Of a DNA stretch of 64,000 bases, positions 51,487-61,620 are shown piece after piece. The DNA is from a virus (lineage: Duplodnaviria; Caudoviricetes): positions 1 through 64,000 of IMG/VR virus record IMGVR_UViG_3300047282_000191. One strand, written 5' to 3'. The notes beneath the pieces were generated by a model. The model saw only the letters and a program-made list of their open reading frames with translations. It had not been told where the DNA came from and searched no databases. Each line of letters begins with the position of its first letter. Within the stretch, counting starts at the first letter, position 1. The position numbers and the translations under genes are program-made.

Positions 51487-52237
51487 TGAGTTGCGATTCT
51501 ATGTCATCAAATAATTTAATTCTGGCTTTAATGGCTTTAATTGCGGCTTGTTCAGCCTCGTGAATTAAGAATGGATCATCTTTACAAAAATAATTAACCA
51601 AATGCTCTGACATGGGTCCATGGCTATCTCCATCGACCTGTATATGTCTTTCTAAGTAATAATGAAACTTAGGAGCATCAGTTTCTGATATATCGATCTG
51701 TTTAAGTAACCTTTTAAACATTGCTGGAATTACTGACTCTCTACCATAACAAAATGAAGCTGCGGCACAATGAGGTCCCATGTTTATAGCATCAAAAGTA
51801 GTTTTTACAAAATCCATAGAGGCTTTTGGAACATACTCACATTCTATATGTGAATTGAACTTACTAACGGCATCCAGGTAATTTCTAACGGGCATTGTAT
51901 CAGCACCTACTTCCATCATTGCCTGTAAATATAAGTCAAAATGGCTTATAGATGATTTACCATCTGGAGATATATCAGACTCTTCACAAAGAACTATCTC
52001 ATTGATCATCCTAGCAATATCAGATCTTGTGCCAGGAGTTGGTAGCCATATATTACTAGTTGGCACTACATTGTGTTGTATAGTTTTTAATAGACTCATG
52101 AAATCCCATACCGCAAAGACGTGGTATTTCATGAAGATTCTAAGATCTTCAATAGATTGTATAGTATTAGTTACAAGAAGAGAATGATTCTCAAGCTGAG
52201 ATCGGTGCTCTTGTATCTTCTTTAGGTCTAATTTCAT
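51482..52237 (-). CDS. DUF3050 heme-oxygenase-like (diiron oxidase-type) protein
   Basis: FMKYHVFAVWDFMSLLK, EESD, HFDLYL.AM, FCYGRE..IP.MF and YYLERHIQVDGDSHGP. Confidence 0.85.
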   Translation of the reverse strand: MKLDLKKIQEHRSQLENHSLLVTNTIQSIEDLRIFMKYHVFAVWDFMSLLKTIQHNVVPTSNIWLPTPGTRSDIARMINEIVLCEESDISPDGKSSISHFDLYLQAMMEVGADTMPVRNYLDAVSKFNSHIECEYVPKASMDFVKTTFDAINMGPHCAAASFCYGRESVIPAMFKRLLKQIDISETDAPKFHYYLERHIQVDGDSHGPMSEHLVNYFCKDDPFLIHEAEQAAIKAIKARIKLFDDIESQLI

Positions 52238-53522
52238 TTAATCCAGTTTCTAATAATTCTATAGGTTCATTAAACAATAATGAGAATGCGTTTTGTTGGA
52301 TAGCAGAATACCAAATCTTTTCTACTCTACAATTATGCAAAAATACTTCATCAGGAAACTTAATAGGACAACTAGACTTACAAAGTCTTCTAACTGGACA
52401 TGTATAACAATGCTCGTGTTTTCTATCTAAATCTAATTGTATGATCTTAACACTCTTGATATCTTTGATATGACCTCCTTTAAATTTCTCAGAGGTGTGT
52501 GGGCATAACCTAACTTGTCCCATGATATCCATAGAAAGAATGTCAGCAGCATCAGCTCCACAATTTGAAGTCATTGTGATGGGTATTTGATGTCGAGTTA
52601 AAGCAGCATACTTAAGAACACCAGCATCTCCATCAATGACATTAGAGTTTAAGATACGATCTCCACCCTCTCTCAATTGTTTGATAGCAGCTTTAATATA
52701 GTCATTAACTATCTTTTTAAACTTGGGTAAATCATCGCCTTTGATGACATGCTCAGCTGAGTTTTTAGAGTCTGTATCATCATAAACTCGTGCAGGAATA
52801 TAACTAATCCTTGCATGTTTTAATCCCAATTTATCTTTTATAGCTTTAAAATAATCATTAATTTCAAAGAGATCGAAGTTTGTAGCAGAAACTACAGGAT
52901 TAAAACTATATTGCACTTTAGGACTCATGTCATCAAATTGTTTGATGACATCTACAACACTCTTTCTACCAAAGATATCTTCACCACGAAGTCTTTCATG
53001 TCCTGGACCATCATGTGAAATACCCATCATGACGCTTGCTGTTAAAGTCTTAAAGAAGTCAACATGCTTTTGCCTCAACGGAGATGCGTTTGTAGAAATG
53101 TAGAAGTGACGTCCTGGCCCATCAAGTAACTTCATGATTGGCACCATGTCATTCCAGTATAGAAACGGTTCACCGCCCCAAAGTTCGATACGTTCTAAGT
53201 TTTCTAAGTCAAGATACTTGTTTATGGATTCTACAAATGATTCAAGCCAGAAGTTTTGTGGTCTCTCATCTGGATTACCAATATCTTTTTGCATACAATA
53301 TGTGCATGAATAGTTACATGCATGTCCTAAAAGGATTCGTAATGCAGTTGGCTTATTTGTCTTGTGTTGTACACCAAAGTTATGTTGTACATTTTCAAAG
53401 AATTCATAACCTTCTTTGGGAGGCAAAGATAGGATCTCGCCTTTATCATTATGAAGACTGTTATCCAAGTTTCTATAATAGAATACTTTACCAGATTGTG
53501 TTTGAAATTTACTAAAGCTCAT
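52191..53522 (-). CDS. Radical SAM/SPASM protein
   Basis: CNYSCTYC, WGGEPF and ISHDG; SPASM CG...GQVRLCPH..CYTCPVRRLCKSSCP; likely start MSFSKF by ATGA overlap. Confidence 0.92.
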   Translation of the reverse strand: MSFSKFQTQSGKVFYYRNLDNSLHNDKGEILSLPPKEGYEFFENVQHNFGVQHKTNKPTALRILLGHACNYSCTYCMQKDIGNPDERPQNFWLESFVESINKYLDLENLERIELWGGEPFLYWNDMVPIMKLLDGPGRHFYISTNASPLRQKHVDFFKTLTASVMMGISHDGPGHERLRGEDIFGRKSVVDVIKQFDDMSPKVQYSFNPVVSATNFDLFEINDYFKAIKDKLGLKHARISYIPARVYDDTDSKNSAEHVIKGDDLPKFKKIVNDYIKAAIKQLREGGDRILNSNVIDGDAGVLKYAALTRHQIPITMTSNCGADAADILSMDIMGQVRLCPHTSEKFKGGHIKDIKSVKIIQLDLDRKHEHCYTCPVRRLCKSSCPIKFPDEVFLHNCRVEKIWYSAIQQNAFSLLFNEPIELLETGLNEIRPKEDTRAPISA

Positions 53523-54580
53523 TTTATGCCTATAATTGGTACGATATTGCCGCAATTAGGCTTGACTAAACCAAATTTAGTCTTCGCCCATCCATTTTCT
53601 AATAATTTATAACAGTATTTACTATATGGCGGGATCATCAATCCTGGGATAAAATTAAAATTGCGATTGATATTATAATCAGCAACAAGATTGAAATATT
53701 TTTTAAATTTAGGATTCTTCGTCCTATTCGCCCATTTGCTATATGCTTTTTGTTTACCAAGTAAAAGATCTGTTAAGAATGCTTCTCTATCAAAGCTATC
53801 TTGTACTTGATGAAATGCTTCTTCGTTTAAATCACTTGCGTCATCACTAGAATAATACCAACGATCAAAATAAAGATGCACAGATTCCCTATAAATCTGC
53901 ATTAAACCCTGTTCATCGCTATCGACCCAAGTTGTTTGTTCTTGCGCCCATTCATGTTCTAATACTTCTCTTTGACCTAAGAAATTATGGTGAACAATGT
54001 TATCCATATTATGTTTATTTGCAAGTTCAATATATGGTGTAAATAACTCAGGATATCCATCATCTATAAACTTAAGTTTTAAGATAGGAGACTTATCATT
54101 CAACCGTTCTAATGCATCAATTAATTTCTTTGGATTTACTGATTTTAAAAACGTTGAACTAATGCTAATATTAGCTAAAGATTTAAATTTAATGGTGTCT
54201 AATATTTTTGCTGTTCTAAAAATAGCATTATCTGTAAAACAATATTCTAAGTTATGGGCATTCTCTTGATACCATCTATATGCATCCGGATAGTTTAATT
54301 TCAGAAAAAGCATATCATCGTTAGTACGAACTACTAAGAAATGAGAGAATACCTCTTGCCACATATCTTCATGTTTTTGTGTTATCTTTGGGAAGTATGT
54401 GTTTAAGTTTGGCTTAATACCTTTAAAATTTTTATCGATATAACATATCTTGCAACCAGCAGCGCAATAATATCTTGTACCCAAACTAAAATAGACATCA
54501 TAGTTAACTGGATGTAATGCATCTTGTGTTAACCAGTACTCGTGTAGATTCTCGGCTTTTTCAAAATCTTCAGTTATCAT
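53519..54580 (-). CDS. Divergent radical SAM-like protein
   Basis: CAAGCKIC (CxxxCxxC) near the N-terminus; no recognisable GGEP or SPASM cysteines. Confidence 0.65.
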   Translation of the reverse strand: MITEDFEKAENLHEYWLTQDALHPVNYDVYFSLGTRYYCAAGCKICYIDKNFKGIKPNLNTYFPKITQKHEDMWQEVFSHFLVVRTNDDMLFLKLNYPDAYRWYQENAHNLEYCFTDNAIFRTAKILDTIKFKSLANISISSTFLKSVNPKKLIDALERLNDKSPILKLKFIDDGYPELFTPYIELANKHNMDNIVHHNFLGQREVLEHEWAQEQTTWVDSDEQGLMQIYRESVHLYFDRWYYSSDDASDLNEEAFHQVQDSFDREAFLTDLLLGKQKAYSKWANRTKNPKFKKYFNLVADYNINRNFNFIPGLMIPPYSKYCYKLLENGWAKTKFGLVKPNCGNIVPIIGIK

Positions 54581-55695
54581 ATATTCACCTTGAATTGATT
54601 ATCTATACCAATCCTATGGAACAATGTTTTTTCTTTCTTAAGCTCTGCATTGTGCATTATAGCAGTATCAACGAACTTATAGAAATCTTTACAACTTCCT
54701 TCAGGTTGTTTATCAAATAACTTATAAAGGTATTTTAAACCACAACTTGCTTTTTGTTGACATTTGAGACATGATTCATTAACTCTACCTTCATCGCCTC
54801 GAGGTTGCCAAACTTCGACTCCATCTTGCCATTTGCCTATGCGTGTATTCTCAACTTTATATTCTAAGAAATCAAATTCTGGATACAAATAACCGTCAGG
54901 AGATAATATTAGTTTATTATGTTCTGCAAAATATGCTTTATCAATCTTGTCATAATTACCATCAATGAAAATATTTAATTTCTTAATGTATAATATTTGA
55001 ATAAACTCAAGAAATGCACCAAAGAATTGCGGCAAGTTTATTCGATCTATGATAACATCAAATTTCTCTTCGCCGCGGTGATGTCTAAGGGGGATAATGT
55101 TTACAGTCTTACATCCAGTGTTGTAACACGTATCTACTATAGATTGTATATTTTCAAACGAGAATGCTCGTCTATCTTCAACAGGCAAGACATACTGCCA
55201 TTTCCAATCAAAACAATGCTGATTTAATACTTCAGCCATTTCTATAACATTTAGTTTATCGCGATTCTCTTCTTGGAACATAAAATCATAACTAATAGTT
55301 GCACCAAGTTTACCAGAATACTTTTCAAATATATGCTTGTTCTCTTTAACTAAAGAACCATTGGTTGTCATTCCTACCTTCCAACCATTGCGCTCGGCGA
55401 TAGGCATCAACCATTCTAGGCATTGTTCCATGCGTTTTGCAAATAATAGCGGTTCACCACCATGGAAAGATACCCATTCAACTTTATTTTCTTGTCTTTC
55501 TGCCCACAAGAAAAACTCTTGCAACTCTTGAGTTGTATTGCCGTTTAAGGATTGACCACCAAGAGATTCTATATAACCTCGATCACAATATACGCAATCA
55601 AAGTTGCACTTGTTTCCAAGATAGATGATAAGCATCTTAACATTATTAAGAGGCTTTTCTCTCTTATTGTAAAAGTTTATAGCTGATTGCATCAT
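54577..55695 (-). CDS. Radical SAM protein with partial SPASM domain
   Basis: CNFDCVYC, FHGGEPLL and TTNG; C-terminal CLKCQQKASC..C. Confidence 0.92.
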   Translation of the reverse strand: MMQSAINFYNKREKPLNNVKMLIIYLGNKCNFDCVYCDRGYIESLGGQSLNGNTTQELQEFFLWAERQENKVEWVSFHGGEPLLFAKRMEQCLEWLMPIAERNGWKVGMTTNGSLVKENKHIFEKYSGKLGATISYDFMFQEENRDKLNVIEMAEVLNQHCFDWKWQYVLPVEDRRAFSFENIQSIVDTCYNTGCKTVNIIPLRHHRGEEKFDVIIDRINLPQFFGAFLEFIQILYIKKLNIFIDGNYDKIDKAYFAEHNKLILSPDGYLYPEFDFLEYKVENTRIGKWQDGVEVWQPRGDEGRVNESCLKCQQKASCGLKYLYKLFDKQPEGSCKDFYKFVDTAIMHNAELKKEKTLFHRIGIDNQFKVNI

Positions 55696-57385
55696 CTAAG
55701 GCTCGGTCATCAGAGGCTAATATCAATACGTGAAGTAATGCTAAGAAAAATACTTCTTGCATCTGGTTTTGTACTTTAACTATTCTGCCAGTTGGCATAT
55801 TTCTCTTAGCTAGAATTTGATAATAAAAATCGTCGATACTTACTTGCTTATCTCCGATTAAATGTTCTATAGCATCAAGGAACTCTTCTGGTTTAACTTT
55901 ATCCAGTTCTTTATGCTTACCTTCCATAATCTCTAACCAAAAACCCAACAATCGTTGAGGATCTTTAAACTTATTAACGAGATCATTGTGTACTTTATCG
56001 AGCGATGGATGATACTGATAGACATAGTAGAATAGCATATAGCTGATAGCTTTGAGGAATGTTTGTTCGTACCCTTCAGTGTGCAATGCACGGACTAATG
56101 TATCATATTTAATCTTAAATTGTTTCTTGGCGATATCTTCTTGTAAATCTACATAAAGCTTAACAATCTTTTGACACATGTCATCTGGTCTGAACATACG
56201 CGTACCAGTATCTAAGTTGCCCGCTGGACACTGATAGCATGCATTCTTATAATCACAAGTCTTGCACTGCTCTTCCTCTTCGAACATCTTAGCATATTCT
56301 TTTTGGAAGTGTTTATAACGATCTATATAGATCGTATCATTAAATATATTACCCAATATAGTATCTGATGTTGGCCCACCCTTTTGATTTGTGAAGAAGT
56401 AGCAACCAGAAAAATCTCCACTGGCATCAATCGCTATCATATCAGAACCGATCATACAGTTCTCTTCGCCCTTCTTTCCAACACCCTCACTAAAATGGAT
56501 TTGCAAGTCTTCATACTTATCAAGCGATTTTAATATGTCATTGTGGAGAGTATTCCATTCTTGTTCACTCCATTGAATGAATCCTCTTGCAGAATCTAAT
56601 ATCAATGGATGAACTACTAAACGTCTAATTCCTCGCTTATACAAATTATCAACAAACTCTGCAAAGTAAGGTGCATTCTCTCTGGCAAGAGTACAGCGTA
56701 CAGTGACTCGTTTCTGAAATTTTGGCTCTTCTGGGATTGTTTGGATCTGATCCATGAGCTTGTTTATCTTCTCTTGACCGATCTCTCTATGATCGACCTC
56801 AGCCTTATCAGTATCTAGCGAGATAAGCATATATGTAAAGTCGTGCGAGAAATATTCTTCAACAAGAGGTTGACTTAATAATAACCCATTGGTGACGATA
56901 CCGATAACAGTATTACTCTCTCCACGTGAGTTAAGTTCTAGCTCTTCTTTATTCTTGCGTAGGAAATCTAAGATGATATCTTTGTGGATTAAAGGTTCTC
57001 CGCCAAAGAATTGAAATACTTTCTTTTGATTAGTGTTTGCATCTTTTAAGAATCGATATGCAGTTAAGAGAGACTCATTGGTAAACCTACCAAAGTCTTT
57101 CTTATGCTGCTCATAACAATAAGAACATGATAAATTACATGCATTAGTTAATATAAGATTCATCTGCTTCAATTCACTGAACAGATATTTTGTATTGCTT
57201 ATATTAAGAATAGTCTCTGTTTCTTTAGGAACTACAGAGATTAATTTATTAATCTTATCCAATCCCTTTGGTGTAATAATCTTTTCACTAAGGAATTGAA
57301 ATTGTCCATCAGTCTCAACAACTGAGGCTTTATGATCTTCTTGTCTTTGTCTTTGAGCTTCGGTTTTTAACCAAATAGTCTTCAT
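55664..57385 (-). CDS. Radical SAM/SPASM protein with C-terminal extension
   Basis: CNLSCSYC, FFGGEPL and TNGLLL; SPASM CMIG..GDFSGC..CKTCDYKNACYQCP..C; ATG overlaps the peptide stop (ATGA). Confidence 0.93.
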   Translation of the reverse strand: MKTIWLKTEAQRQRQEDHKASVVETDGQFQFLSEKIITPKGLDKINKLISVVPKETETILNISNTKYLFSELKQMNLILTNACNLSCSYCYEQHKKDFGRFTNESLLTAYRFLKDANTNQKKVFQFFGGEPLIHKDIILDFLRKNKEELELNSRGESNTVIGIVTNGLLLSQPLVEEYFSHDFTYMLISLDTDKAEVDHREIGQEKINKLMDQIQTIPEEPKFQKRVTVRCTLARENAPYFAEFVDNLYKRGIRRLVVHPLILDSARGFIQWSEQEWNTLHNDILKSLDKYEDLQIHFSEGVGKKGEENCMIGSDMIAIDASGDFSGCYFFTNQKGGPTSDTILGNIFNDTIYIDRYKHFQKEYAKMFEEEEQCKTCDYKNACYQCPAGNLDTGTRMFRPDDMCQKIVKLYVDLQEDIAKKQFKIKYDTLVRALHTEGYEQTFLKAISYMLFYYVYQYHPSLDKVHNDLVNKFKDPQRLLGFWLEIMEGKHKELDKVKPEEFLDAIEHLIGDKQVSIDDFYYQILAKRNMPTGRIVKVQNQMQEVFFLALLHVLILASDDRALDDAISYKLLQ

Positions 57386-57588
57386 ACAGTCCCACGGCCA
57401 CAAGCGCAAGCACACTGACATTCGCAGACAGTGTTATAATCATCATAAAATATGTGGCTGTGAGATGCTAGAGATTCTAGCACATCTAGCATTTGCCTAA
57501 AAGTATCAGCTGAAATAGTATCTTCAACTGCCTTTGTACCTGGGACCGTTGATCCAGTATTAAAATCGCTCGTATTTTCTACACCCAT
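57382..57588 (-). CDS. Cys-rich putative precursor/substrate peptide (68 aa, C-terminal CECQCACAC)
   Basis: Hand-verified translation; coupled to the first radical SAM gene. Confidence 0.8.
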   Translation of the reverse strand: MGVENTSDFNTGSTVPGTKAVEDTISADTFRQMLDVLESLASHSHIFYDDYNTVCECQCACACGRGTV

Positions 57589-57589
57589 T

Positions 57590-58549
57590 TTAAACCTCTT
57601 CGTAATGTTTAGATATAGTTATATTATATACTAAACGGTTTCCACTATTAATAAACGTCCAATCCATGGTATTACCAGTATTTAATCGAAGACTGATATA
57701 ACCACTTTGTTGACCTTTTTTAAATCGTGCTTTATATTTATTAGACCCCAGGTTGATGATATCAAAATCGCTTGCAACCTTTATCAATGATGGATCTAAA
57801 TTTTCATCAAGTGCTTGACGAAGGATACCTAATGCACCAACATCAAACTCGAATTCTTCTCCGCGTACTACATACCATCTATCTTCTAATGGATATGCAT
57901 TCTTACTCATCTTTGGCTTTAAGAACTGAGTAGCGAAATCTCCCATATGTGCATCTAGATTTCTAAACCTTGCTTTGTCTGTTTCGAATTCTACTTCATC
58001 ACCCAAAACAATAGTTGACGGGTTAAAAACCACAAGATAGATCGGAGCATTCTTCATCTTGTACGCATAAAACCACGTTATTGTACTGATGTGTTTATTT
58101 TCATCAGTAGTTATGAATTCTTCTTTTTGTATATCATATATGTGACCACCCATCCAAGGATTGCGAGTATAGAATACGCTGTTTTGTATGATATCGTTAT
58201 GAGAACCACCACTCATAAATGTACCAAAGCCAAGTGACTTTTCTTGATTTTTATCAAGCCACTCAATTACAAAGTTTACATCGATGCCTTTAGTGACTGC
58301 TCTATTCATCTCCATCGAAGGTTGCACAAATTGCTTTGTTAATACAAAGTCGTAACCATCTACATGACCTCTATTCTTATTAAATACAATCTTATTGTCC
58401 TTCTTATCGAAATGATATAGATAAGATTGTGGTTCCTTAGGGTTTACCCAAAAACCTTTTATATCAGAATCAGAATTCCATGTTTGGATAGCATCTAACC
58501 ATGGGGTACTTTTTGTTTGACCACATTGAAAAAATACTATAGGTTTCAT
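57590..58549 (-). CDS. Hypothetical protein (319 aa)
   Basis: ORF track; GGAG SD; stop lies 1 nt before the peptide start. Confidence 0.8.
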   Translation of the reverse strand: MKPIVFFQCGQTKSTPWLDAIQTWNSDSDIKGFWVNPKEPQSYLYHFDKKDNKIVFNKNRGHVDGYDFVLTKQFVQPSMEMNRAVTKGIDVNFVIEWLDKNQEKSLGFGTFMSGGSHNDIIQNSVFYTRNPWMGGHIYDIQKEEFITTDENKHISTITWFYAYKMKNAPIYLVVFNPSTIVLGDEVEFETDKARFRNLDAHMGDFATQFLKPKMSKNAYPLEDRWYVVRGEEFEFDVGALGILRQALDENLDPSLIKVASDFDIINLGSNKYKARFKKGQQSGYISLRLNTGNTMDWTFINSGNRLVYNITISKHYEEV

Positions 58550-58558
58550 GACATCTCC

Positions 58559-59785
58559 ATGTTTAATTATAATTACGTACTACCTTACACCAATCACTCA
58601 GATCTTGAACCGTTAATCATCAGTTCCGCTGAGGACTTCCATTTGATTACGAAGTCTGGTCAGCGGATCCTAGATGCCCAATGCGGCAATATTAACTGCA
58701 ACTTGGGTTACTCTCAACATTCAATATCCAATGCTATTTATATGGCATCCAAGTCATTACCGTTCAGTAGACATAATAATGCTATGTTAGCCGAGATTGG
58801 CGCAGAGTATTCTAAGCGTCTATCCTACTATTTCCCGAAGCATGAAAAGTTTTTCTTTGGAAGTTCTGGATCAGATGCCATTGAGACGGCTTTACGTTTG
58901 TCATATATGACACGATTAAAACAAAAGAGCGATAAGAAAAAGATAGTTACGTTTAAGGGATCATACCATGGATCTACATGGTTGACAGGATCCATCAGTG
59001 ATTTGGGAGGTTTAGGACAACACTTACCCCATTGGCCAGATAATTTAAAGTTGTCATCTCCATTTGGTAATGATGGGCAACAAACATTGTACGAGCTTGA
59101 AATGTTAGACTTGTCGGGAGTTAGTTCCATAGTAATAGAACCATTCACATATTTGTCTGGAGTGTTTGAATGTAGTTATACATTTTGGGAAGAACTTGAA
59201 AAGATATGTAAACAAAATGATATCCATCTAATATTAGACGAATCTGCATCGAGTTTCTTTAAGACTGGCAATTCATTCTACTACACATCAATTCCAATAG
59301 AACCAACATTCATAGTACTATCAAAAAGTATTACTGCAGGTTACATGCCCCTCTCAGCCGTAGCTATCCACAATGATATTTGGCATATATTACAAGATGA
59401 ATGGATCGTACATGGTTGGACAAATAGTGGATCAGTACCTGGATTAGCAGCAGCAAATGAAGCATTATTAATTTATGAAGAAAATGATTTTAATAATTGT
59501 GATTTGGTAGAAGATTTTCTATCATGGCTGGTGAGCGAGCATGACATTACCTCAACTAGACAAGTTGGTAACTTCTTTGCTTTTGATATGAAATCTAGGA
59601 AGTGGCGCCGAGATGTTGGCGTGAGGTTTGCTTCAGTAGCACTTAAACACGATCTTCAATTGACTACATTTAAGTATGATGCTATCGCTCGCGGATTGAT
59701 ACCACTAAATGCTACTGATAAATATTTTGATGAATTAAAAGAAAAAGTAAGCCGAGTCGTAGAAGATCGTGACTTACTGCGTTAA
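58559..59785 (+). CDS. Class III PLP-dependent aminotransferase
   Basis: FFGSSGSDAIE, SYHGST, IEP, LILDE..FFKTG, LSKSITAGYMPLSA (PLP Lys) and HGWTNSG; ATG 58559 is likely (track starts at TTG 58517). Confidence 0.9.
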   Translation: MFNYNYVLPYTNHSDLEPLIISSAEDFHLITKSGQRILDAQCGNINCNLGYSQHSISNAIYMASKSLPFSRHNNAMLAEIGAEYSKRLSYYFPKHEKFFFGSSGSDAIETALRLSYMTRLKQKSDKKKIVTFKGSYHGSTWLTGSISDLGGLGQHLPHWPDNLKLSSPFGNDGQQTLYELEMLDLSGVSSIVIEPFTYLSGVFECSYTFWEELEKICKQNDIHLILDESASSFFKTGNSFYYTSIPIEPTFIVLSKSITAGYMPLSAVAIHNDIWHILQDEWIVHGWTNSGSVPGLAAANEALLIYEENDFNNCDLVEDFLSWLVSEHDITSTRQVGNFFAFDMKSRKWRRDVGVRFASVALKHDLQLTTFKYDAIARGLIPLNATDKYFDELKEKVSRVVEDRDLLR

Positions 59786-60147
59786 CCAGTACGATCATCA
59801 ATCGTATGATTATGATTTCCAAGTGTATTAATTTTATTTCTCATGTCATTATGTTTATCTGCAAAGATCTTATCACCTTGAGATATACCAGGTATTGATC
59901 CACCAATACTAGCAGTATTCTTATCTTCATAATAATTTCCCCGATCACCATTATTACCAAATGTTGCTAATTGATATGCATCATCATAGGTATGGTAATG
60001 ACCTAACCAACTATTGATTAAGTTAATTAATGAAGTAATATCAGAAGCATTAATATTATTTCCTGATTGAATATTATTTCTTAGTCCGGCAATTGGACTA
60101 TTATCAGCAAATATATTGGCCTTAGGAGATCTTGAGTCTTGTGCCAT
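59782..60147 (-). CDS. 121-aa protein with two I-x-A...H-x-H-T-x-DD repeats
   Basis: INASDITSLINLINSWLGHYHTYDD and IFADKHNDMRNKINTLGNHNHTIDD. Confidence 0.75.
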   Translation of the reverse strand: MAQDSRSPKANIFADNSPIAGLRNNIQSGNNINASDITSLINLINSWLGHYHTYDDAYQLATFGNNGDRGNYYEDKNTASIGGSIPGISQGDKIFADKHNDMRNKINTLGNHNHTIDDRTG

Positions 60148-60148
60148 C

Positions 60149-60523
60149 TTATACCCCTATGACTTCGTCATAAAAAGATTTATCTGCAAATTCAGGTATA
60201 CGAACATATACTTTCTCAGCTGATATTCCTCTTGCAATCATTTTTTTAATTAAACTATCAATATAAGTTTGTGTTTGATTTAAGTCGAATGCTTCTACCA
60301 ATGGTTTAATATACGCAATAGATTCTAGATTATGATCTAAATTAATAAAGCTTTCATAAATAGCATCCCAATTTGGATCAATAAGCACTGCATTCGTAGT
60401 TTCTGGGATATCAATATCTCCAACTACACCAATTAATTTTTGTACACTCGGTTTTTCACCGAAATAATTTTTTAAAATATCATGTTGTACAATAAACTCA
60501 AAGAAAACGTCTTCATGATTCAT
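60149..60523 (-). CDS. Hypothetical acidic protein
   Basis: Likely start MNHEDVFF by TAATG overlap with the fibre gene. Confidence 0.7.
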   Translation of the reverse strand: MNHEDVFFEFIVQHDILKNYFGEKPSVQKLIGVVGDIDIPETTNAVLIDPNWDAIYESFINLDHNLESIAYIKPLVEAFDLNQTQTYIDSLIKKMIARGISAEKVYVRIPEFADKSFYDEVIGV

Positions 60524-61620
60524 TATAGTATCACACACTCAACTAATTTTTCGCTAAATTCTTGATTTGTTTCAAGAGCTACACCAACAGGATTTAATAC
60601 GCCATAGATTGCTCTACCATCGACGTTGGCGATTACTGTTTGTCCTTTTGCAATTGGACCAATAACTCTAACTGGAACTCGTCCGCGAAGAGCAATCGCT
60701 TGACCATCAGCATCTTTATTCATTAAGAATGCTGGCTTCTCAGAAATTACACCAACTGCGATTTGACCTGGAGCATAAGAAGCTGTACACTCTGATTCAG
60801 TACTCAATGAAACCACCATGACAGTTCCAACTGGATATTCTTTATCGGTTGTATATTTTTCTGCTAAGTCGGCGTATCTAGCTGATGTTGCAACACCATT
60901 AAACACGTTTGCTGTTAAATTGCCTGAACTATCACGTGCTGCGATAGTAGAATTAGTTGCAGCTGTAGCACTATTCATACCATCTAATAAGTCAGCATCA
61001 AGACCAGAGCTTGCTCCATCATTGCCAGAATGCCATGGAGTATAACCTAACGCAGCGACTACGTTAGCATTAGTTAAACTAAATTCACCTGAAGTAGAAT
61101 TATATGTTATGTTTCCATTAGTAGAAGCAATGCTTATTGCTGATCTTGCGCGAGCGTTTGTAAAATAAAGGTTAGTACTACCTTCTGCTGTAGCATCTGT
61201 AGTAAATGTAATGTTTGCAGAACCATTAAAAGAAGCACCGTTGATTGTGCGAGCAGTTTGTAATGTTGTAGCAGTCGATGCATTACCAGTAACATTACCT
61301 GTCAAGTTACCAGTAACGTTTCCAGTAAGAGGACCGTTAAATTTAGTAGACGTCATTTCTCCAGTAACAGTTAAGTTACCAGCAGCAGTTAATACAAGTT
61401 CGAATGTGTCTGCAGAATCTACGTTTACTTTGAATTCATTACCATCAGTAGAGATAACACCATCAAGAGGTCCTGCAGATCTTACTTCATTAATCGCTGC
61501 AACTACATTCGTTGCATCAGTTAATAATCCAGCCGTGTCTCCTACGAAGTCACCAATCTGATTAGTTTTTAGTCTCCACCCATTAAAGGTGTCGGTTAGA
61601 TTTACGTTGATAGCTGCCAT
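60523..61620 (-). CDS. Tail-fibre-like protein with peptidase G2/chaperone-like C-terminus
   Basis: INVNLTDTFNGWRLKTN, GLDADLLDG, ARYADLAEKY and IALRGRVPVRV. Confidence 0.8.
   Translation of the reverse strand: MAAINVNLTDTFNGWRLKTNQIGDFVGDTAGLLTDATNVVAAINEVRSAGPLDGVISTDGNEFKVNVDSADTFELVLTAAGNLTVTGEMTSTKFNGPLTGNVTGNLTGNVTGNASTATTLQTARTINGASFNGSANITFTTDATAEGSTNLYFTNARARSAISIASTNGNITYNSTSGEFSLTNANVVAALGYTPWHSGNDGASSGLDADLLDGMNSATAATNSTIAARDSSGNLTANVFNGVATSARYADLAEKYTTDKEYPVGTVMVVSLSTESECTASYAPGQIAVGVISEKPAFLMNKDADGQAIALRGRVPVRVIGPIAKGQTVIANVDGRAIYGVLNPVGVALETNQEFSEKLVECVIL

Follow-up and report, generated by a model that had tools for sequence, protein, structure and literature searches.

Results

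Two small proteins of a phage gene cassette share a unit

We analysed a stretch of 64,000 nucleotides (hereafter the window) of an uncultured T4-like phage, positions 1 to 64,000 of the IMG/VR virus record IMGVR_UViG_3300047282_000191 (Duplodnaviria; Caudoviricetes), which is 89.7 kb long with an estimated completeness of 54%. The window encodes T4-type portal, sheath and large terminase as well as baseplate genes. Flanked by fibre and baseplate genes, its minus strand carries a tightly packed string of genes for a fibre-like protein of 365 aa, proteins of 129, 121, 319 and 68 aa, four proteins with a CX3CX2C motif, and a DUF3050 protein; the genes from the 121-aa protein to the DUF3050 protein are hereafter the cassette. 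The 68-aa protein had been noted as the precursor of a peptide synthesized by ribosomes and modified post-translationally (RiPP) that shares a motif with the 121-aa protein. We found that the two proteins are homologous. Both contain a unit consisting of a helix, HxH and an Asp (helix-HxH-D), present once in the 68-aa protein (hereafter the peptide) and twice in the 121-aa protein (hereafter, with its relatives, the double-unit protein). The features of the two genes are as follows.

57382..57588, minus strand: 68-aa single-unit protein ('precursor peptide'), an open reading frame (ORF) with 90 homologues
57439..57516, minus strand: helix-HxH-D unit of the peptide, I25-D50, matched by hhalign to unit 2 of the 121-aa family
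57400..57426, minus strand: Cys ladder of the peptide, C55-C63, five alternating Cys, presumed radical S-adenosylmethionine (SAM) enzyme substrate next to a PapB-like enzyme
59782..60147, minus strand: 121-aa double-unit protein, an ORF with two helix-HxH units
59980..60054, minus strand: unit 1 of the 121-aa protein, I32-D56
59794..59868, minus strand: unit 2 of the 121-aa protein, I94-D118, to which the peptide aligns best in hhalign

The original prediction had described an exactly spaced HxH-DD motif in three segments, one of the peptide and two of the 121-aa protein. In the ORF translations the segments indeed run without gaps from an Ile to the first His, which is residue 19 in all three, and HxH and an Asp at +6 from the first His are common to them. 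The DD pair, however, is not exactly spaced. Three residues separate it from HxH in the peptide (HSH-IFY-DD) and two in both copies of the 121-aa protein (HYH-TY-DD and HNH-TI-DD), which places it one residue later in the peptide. The sole common Asp is the one at +6, D49 of the peptide and D56 and D118 of the 121-aa protein.

Taken by itself, direct comparison of the two sequences would allow the likeness to be one of chance or composition between unrelated small proteins, as BLASTP in the window gave a marginal E of 0.003 with 24% identity over 29 aa. Comparison of families refutes this. Alignments of the peptide and 121-aa families matched in hhalign with a probability of 93.9% and E of 1.6e-7 over 33 columns. 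In local searches of six-frame ORFs, a hidden Markov model (HMM) of the peptide found the 121-aa protein at E 4.9e-7 (among ~5,000 ORFs), and the double-unit HMM found the peptide at E 3e-5. Reciprocal recovery of both families was obtained in the window, in Ralstonia phage RP12 and in the metagenomic loci L036, L042, L043 and L046 (L0xx, related loci; P0xxx, clusters of double-unit proteins; all such labels are internal to this analysis). A test set beforehand, whether motif HMMs recover both protein types in other genomes, thus came out positive. In addition, exactly two HxH with identical spacing are present in 120 of the 120 listed homologues of the 121-aa protein, and a natural fusion of three units exists (P0346, see below). 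We therefore give chance likeness practically no weight, and the motif is a real conserved module of both proteins.

Of 4,211 six-frame ORFs, a regular expression for the helix and HxH matched solely ORFs of these two types. Where the peptide HMM hits double-unit proteins, its positions ~3-50 often align to their C-terminal half; in the 121-aa protein it is likewise the C-terminal half to which peptide residues ~1-50 correspond. By these alignments, the 68-aa protein amounts to one further repeat unit with a Cys ladder attached.

The peptide begins with a variable N-terminal stretch of ~25 aa, followed by the helix, HxH-x3-D, FYDDY, the CxCxCxCxC ladder and an RG end. Its 90 homologues hardly vary between ADT, in the helix, and RGT at the C terminus. 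No variation of FYDDY is seen when the window's clade is aligned, and only a little in distant relatives. In the stretch from HxH to CxC, compared in 17 loci, 813 codon pairs differ synonymously and 417 non-synonymously; as synonymous differences are in excess, the peptide is a real gene under purifying selection. Its stop codon overlaps, as ATGA, the proposed Met13 start (ATG 57385-57383) of the adjoining 585-aa radical SAM enzyme gene. In relatives the ladder has 4-6 Cys, separated by N, D, E, Q or A, except in L043, which has a single Cys. Longer, fused versions of the peptide were looked for and not found, which is weak evidence.

Anatomy of the unit and structure models

When 28 diverse double-unit proteins are aligned, no residues are without variation except H50, H52, D56, G64, H112, H114 and D118, i.e. 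the two His and the Asp of each unit and one Gly. The peptide family keeps H43, H45, D49 and D50 invariant, together with IFY, one Cys and RG near the end.

The AlphaFold2 (AF2) model of the 121-aa protein is compact, with a predicted local distance difference test (pLDDT) of 81 and a predicted template modelling score (pTM) of 0.73. Helix 34-48 and strand 51-57 make up unit 1; helix 96-110 opens unit 2, of which the C-terminal HxH segment is modelled as a lower-confidence coil. The earlier description of an amphipathic helix followed by HxH agrees with the model, where a helix precedes an extended HxH segment. In contrast, the suggested kinship to the T4 fibre proteins gp37 and gp12 (gp12 has an HxH metal site with Zn) was detected by neither sequence nor fold search. 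There is no Pfam family for the peptide or the 121-aa protein, and a profile search of all PDB sequences returned no fibre protein (best E 0.4, to unrelated haemagglutinins). Foldseek of the monomeric model against the PDB gave nothing at E <= 0.001, though a monomer cannot reveal a trimeric fibre fold. The top rows of a VIA-align search with the same model, the type VI secretion baseplate protein TssK and its homologue IglD (Z 4.4-4.8), were within noise.

Enzymes and other proteins of the cassette

The remaining features of the gene string, in order, are:

60523..61620, minus strand: fibre-like 365-aa protein, first of the string; PHROG tail-fibre families, e.g. phrog_19602 (E 9.6e-11)
60149..60538, minus strand: 129-aa protein between the fibre gene and the 121-aa gene; no family match
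58517..59785, plus strand: class-III aminotransferase, its gene antisense to the string and placed between those of the 121-aa and 319-aa proteins; PF00202 (E 1.3e-42)
57590..58549, minus strand: 319-aa beta-rich protein (p319) with a C-terminal Ig/filamin-like domain, from its AF2 model and Ig-like matches
55664..57385, minus strand: radical SAM/SPASM enzyme of 585 aa (rSAM585), likely start Met13; PF04055, with PF13186 sub-threshold
54577..55695, minus strand: radical SAM enzyme of 372 aa (rSAM372); PF04055 (E 2.5e-10); syntenic
53519..54580, minus strand: divergent CX3CX2C protein of 353 aa (r353) with the motif CAAGCKIC; phrog_36229 (E 5.7e-42); syntenic
52191..53555, minus strand: radical SAM enzyme of 454 aa (rSAM454); PF04055
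51482..52237, minus strand: DUF3050/HamA-type heme-oxygenase-like protein, end of the cassette; PF11251 (E 6.3e-78)

Three of the four CX3CX2C proteins (585, 372, 353 and 454 aa) reached the Pfam Radical_SAM threshold. The SPASM match of rSAM585 was slightly below threshold (20.7 versus 21.5 bits), and its best NCBIfam match was the ranthipeptide maturase PapB, at 114.9 bits far below the cut-off of 340. Indeed, no curated NCBIfam cut-off was reached by the models for PapB, CXXX-repeat (77.7 of 350), SCIFF (77.1 of 425) or HxsB (51.3 of 370). The small Cys-rich ORF directly adjoins the rSAM585 gene, an arrangement kept in all full cassettes, in all of which rSAM585 is syntenic. A PqqD domain or RiPP recognition element (RRE) was not detected in the radical SAM enzymes at E up to 0.1, and searches of the cassette and its immediate flanks, both in the window and in RP12, turned up no family of peptidases or transporters. 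Of the three enzymes that match PF04055, rSAM454 has relatives in 485 stretches of IMG/VR.

The aminotransferase is confined to the window's subclade and absent from RP12 and most related loci. It showed a weak match to daptide-type RiPP aminotransferases (130 bits versus a cut-off of 450). The p319 gene is present in most, not all, cassettes, and in three paralogues in L026. The AF2 model of p319 (pLDDT 82, pTM 0.82) gave only generic Ig-like matches for the C-terminal domain (residues 200-319, Z 6-7) and no match for the N-terminal 200 residues. Across 18 relatives, conservation is limited to P212 and Y171, and no catalytic residue is conserved. From the model, p319 looks like an Ig-domain protein and not enzyme-like.

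Several observations concern the surroundings of these genes. The 129-aa gene is conserved solely in loci of the T4-like subclade. The T4-type late-promoter consensus TATAAATA has 10 matches in the window against 8.4 expected, a total not above chance; all 10 lie on the minus (coding) strand, and one (58735-58742, minus strand) falls within the aminotransferase gene, which runs antisense, at 186 nt upstream of where p319 starts. Genes resembling fatty-acid desaturases, with a diiron His-box, occur at L026:7918-8715, L042:712-2936, L089:5147-6007 and L101:5156-6013, where they flank the cassette or directly precede a rSAM454 relative; L042 also has a gene for an Asp/Arg hydroxylase.

The cassette is found in phages

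Homologues of the 121-aa protein numbered 170 in a word search, and an exhaustive profile search with hmmsearch yielded 280 double-unit clusters at 50% identity. The protein matches phrog_31780 (function not assigned), and its homologue in RP12 is ORF074. Indeed, the Ralstonia jumbo phages RP12 and RP31 have the same gene order: the fibre-like ORF072/073, ORF074 with two units, an unannotated 65-aa peptide (L001:9986-10183) and ORF075-080. DUF3050 is present in RP12 and most full cassettes.

A search of IMG/VR with the peptide alignment gave 29 loci, all of which keep the cassette. The double-unit gene accompanies the peptide in 29 of 29 loci with enough flank, one of them (L034) with a frameshift, and additional loci agree; no peptide without a double-unit gene was seen where flanks sufficed. 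The frameshift is evident from near-identical contigs (L034:5185-5495 versus L036:4195-4536). It splits the L034 double-unit gene into pieces of 66 and 37 aa, and may be an assembly error or mark a broken copy. In most loci examined a fibre-like gene precedes the double-unit gene, and in distant loci the fibre proteins encoded upstream have a conserved C-terminal end, W-x-Q-[VI]-[YF]-P-A-[VI]-Y.

Clusters in the ESM Atlas that look alike by their features are labelled 100% viral. A scan of 185,579 bacterial and archaeal genomes (one per species) with patterns from the peptide alignment, which are narrow, found no true peptide. The cassette, as seen so far, is thus confined to phage sequences. 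The sole match of the scan was spurious and arose from a repeated intergenic element in a contig of a bacterial metagenome-assembled genome (CALKWO010000128; L039:5959-7583). The element translates three times to a SHNHI(F/Y) stretch, followed twice by YDDS, and each copy precedes a small ORF that starts with MTT(R/Q)KNTIG or similar.

The sole virion proteome of a carrier phage, that of RP31, comprises 32 proteins from gel bands, and ORF68-76 are not among them (PMC5468394, Table S3). The sensitivity of this proteome was low, because the upstream fibre-like ORFs were missed too.

Absence from the list would be expected if the cassette had nothing to do with the virion and made a RiPP-type natural product or peptide-derived cofactor during infection. 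Such a product could be metal-binding or redox-active, loosely like pyrroloquinoline quinone, with the 121-aa protein as its carrier or immunity partner. The gene set does resemble cofactor and RiPP pathways, with a peptide, several radical SAM/SPASM enzymes and a heme-oxygenase-like DUF3050 protein, and the subclade aminotransferase with its sub-threshold daptide-type match would fit as well, as would FYDDY, invariant in the window's clade and slightly variable farther away. However, neither a protease nor an exporter is encoded, and the position beside fibre genes is conserved between a T4-like myovirus and a phiKZ-like jumbo phage. Furthermore, double-unit proteins are fused to adhesin-like domains, and rSAM454 relatives lie beside fibre-like proteins elsewhere (both described below). 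We therefore consider a natural product rather improbable.

Variants of the double-unit protein and reduced cassettes

Most double-unit proteins have 0-1 Cys and none has a Cys ladder. A beta-propeller interrupts the P0268 protein between its two units, and these should therefore pack together in space. Other members carry Hint-type domains, or C-terminal stretches that are PA14-like by eye. Double-unit proteins of 450-490 aa at L035:8614-9972 and in P0273, P0278 and P0343 have a Hint/intein-like C-terminal module that starts with CFPAG, a sequence feature that hints at C-terminal autoprocessing. Insertions and fusions of this kind are typical of modular phage receptor-binding or adhesin proteins.

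A natural three-unit fusion is present in P0346. Its residues 1-118 match the double-unit HMM (51 bits) and residues 125-175 match the peptide HMM at 24.9 bits, a model to which units 1 and 2 score -0.7 and 2.3. A folded-looking domain of ~155 residues replaces the Cys ladder. The gene follows a fibre gene with the C-terminal W-x-Q-[VI]-[YF]-P-A-[VI]-Y.

Some loci have only part of the cassette. L044 and L045 have two double-unit genes, with no peptide and none of the four window-type radical SAM genes within 10 kb. In the reduced cassettes L043, L072 and L111, rSAM454 is the only one of these four genes that is retained, alongside the peptide and the double-unit protein. L072 and L111 also encode a CX3CX2C protein of ~700 aa (L072:2247-4334; L111:1855-3963, minus strand) that is unmatched by the window's four radical SAM-type proteins. 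The idea that the number of Cys tracks the number of radical SAM genes, suggested by L043 with one of each, was dropped; it is ruled out by L111, which has six Cys and only rSAM454 and the different ~700-aa protein.

In five loci (L088, L089, L095, L097 and L101), relatives of rSAM454 occur without HxH proteins. They stand there after Gly-rich fibre-like ORFs, ORFs in which an initial CGACAC segment leads into poly-Gly, and an ORF of 165 aa resembling a tail-fibre-assembly protein. From their sequences, the fibre-like proteins look like another class with Cys ladders, larger than the first, on which enzymes of the rSAM454 family act.

The association with rSAM454 bears on a second explanation of the shared unit, one that the original prediction had also raised. 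The unit might be a leader or recognition sequence for a radical SAM enzyme, for example rSAM454 or the N-terminal ~70 residues of rSAM585, with both the peptide and the double-unit protein as substrates. In a variant of this explanation, an RRE domain would be replaced by the 121-aa protein, acting on its own as presenter or decoy; as the enzymes showed no PqqD/RRE domain at E up to 0.1, they would benefit from a separate partner for recognition. In the peptide the unit stands immediately N-terminal to the Cys ladder, the position of a RiPP leader. The double-unit gene lies directly upstream of rSAM454 in seven loci (L065, L071, L073, L074, L077, L094 and L106), and L072 and L111 keep the peptide, the double-unit protein and rSAM454 together. 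Because the double-unit gene so often abuts rSAM454 and travels along with it in reduced cassettes, we leave this explanation about a quarter of the probability. Set against it are the double-unit proteins themselves, which lack a Cys ladder and mostly any Cys, occur in L044 and L045 away from the peptide and these enzymes, and accommodate large extra domains or a propeller between their units, which would be odd for a leader. Moreover, the supposed leader is never paired with a protease, and the peptide, over its full length up to DD, has its homologue in half of a folded domain.

A possible role of the shared unit

We favour a structural or assembly role of the unit, as suggested by the sequences, over a tag shared by two enzyme substrates. 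A structural role of the double-unit protein is indicated by its few Cys, its compact AF2 fold, its tolerance of insertions and fusions and its occurrence without the enzymes nearby. The unit may thus be a structural, probably metal-binding, docking element and the Cys ladder the substrate of radical SAM enzymes, a reading to which we give an even chance. What we infer is the binding of metal, the contact between the two proteins, the kind of chemistry and the place in the virion.

The repeat unit comprises ~45-50 residues: a short polar stretch, an amphipathic helix, an extended HxH segment and an Asp four residues on. Two such units are present in the 121-aa protein, and the 68-aa protein supplies a third from a separate gene, with the Cys-x-Cys ladder added at its C terminus. 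The invariant His-x-His and Asp suggest a metal site, putatively formed by these His, His and Asp. The small protein may dock via its unit onto the double-unit protein, which would give, as 2 + 1, a three-unit bundle. Strict co-occurrence and the P0346 fusion indirectly suggest that the peptide and the 121-aa protein co-assemble, and they probably dock together while the Cys tail is modified. Radical SAM/SPASM-type enzymes would then modify the ladder, most plausibly with thioether-type cross-links. As no peptidase or exporter is encoded and p319 does not look enzymatic, the product is probably retained whole, and it may stay intact as part of, or accessory to, the fibre apparatus of the neighbouring genes.

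Such a bundle would echo the three HxH pairs that hold one metal ion, octahedrally coordinated, in trimeric phage fibres. The T4 gp37 needle has HxH sites with seven Fe ions, and in trimeric fibres three HxH pairs coordinate one ion (PMC11705849). We regard as possible, if doubtful, the specific form in which a 2+1 pseudo-trimer, with one metal ion held by six His, anchors the cross-linked Cys ladder to the distal fibre.

Several results weigh against a docking and fibre role. No cassette protein is in the RP31 virion list, although this is a weak negative (PMC5468394), and the sequence and fold searches detected no tie to solved HxH fibre proteins. Just one cluster, on a contig of 1.3 kb, has the three-unit fusion, and the four units in two proteins of L044 misfit a simple rule of three. 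The seven loci with the double-unit gene directly upstream of rSAM454 count here too, as do the reduced cassettes L072 and L111, where exactly the double-unit protein, the peptide, rSAM454 and another CX3CX2C protein are kept.

Discussion

Our full-text literature search found no paper on the cassette or the shared unit. We compared them with known systems. The cassette resembles T4 gp37 and gp12 in having a His-x-His on an extended segment, in its tail-fibre gene region and in the three HxH units (two plus one) that are available. It differs from them in that no likeness of sequence or fold was detected, and in that HxH here follows an alpha-helix and is accompanied by an invariant Asp at +6. 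Furthermore, T4 fibres consist of three identical chains, whereas the units here are in two different small proteins and the metal site is putative.

As in the ranthipeptide and SCIFF systems (PapB-freyrasin and CteB-SCIFF; NF047865, TIGR03974), a gene for a small Cys-rich substrate lies beside radical SAM/SPASM enzyme genes. Here, however, scores are far below the cut-offs, there are four radical SAM-type genes and DUF3050, and a leader protease and exporter are missing. The core hardly varies, the folded protein of a neighbouring gene is a homologue of the 'leader', and the cassette is so far seen in phages only.

In the CrpC/CrpA system of Methanococcus voltae, ranthionine cross-links are introduced into a Cys-rich protein (PMC13692751), a case in which a RiPP-type radical SAM/SPASM enzyme acts on a protein that is kept and not trimmed, as we presume for the modification here. 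That system is archaeal and cellular, with one enzyme and without an HxH unit, a partner protein or a viral or fibre context. In the antiphage system HXS (HxsA/B/C/D), paired radical SAM enzymes mature a His-repeat effector with a small helper protein (PMC13128918), which provides a precedent for proteins matured by radical SAM enzymes in the conflict between phage and host. HXS differs in its His-x-Ser repeat, against helix-HxH-x3-D here, and in being a bacterial defence with a periplasmic effector; the HxsB model, as given above, scored far below its cut-off.

The invariant His, His and Asp provide a clear mutational handle, and the Ralstonia phages RP12 and RP31 are cultured carriers of the cassette. 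If the favoured reading is true, an apparent RiPP leader would be a retained assembly domain homologous to its partner, unlike in leader-guided peptide biosynthesis. Radical SAM cross-linking would then take place inside a tail-fibre module of both T4-like myoviruses and phiKZ-like jumbo phages, which points to a step, so far undescribed, in the maturation of a structure that is accessory or recognizes the host. Should the 2+1 arrangement also hold, RiPP chemistry would serve a virus in building part of the apparatus by which it recognizes its host.

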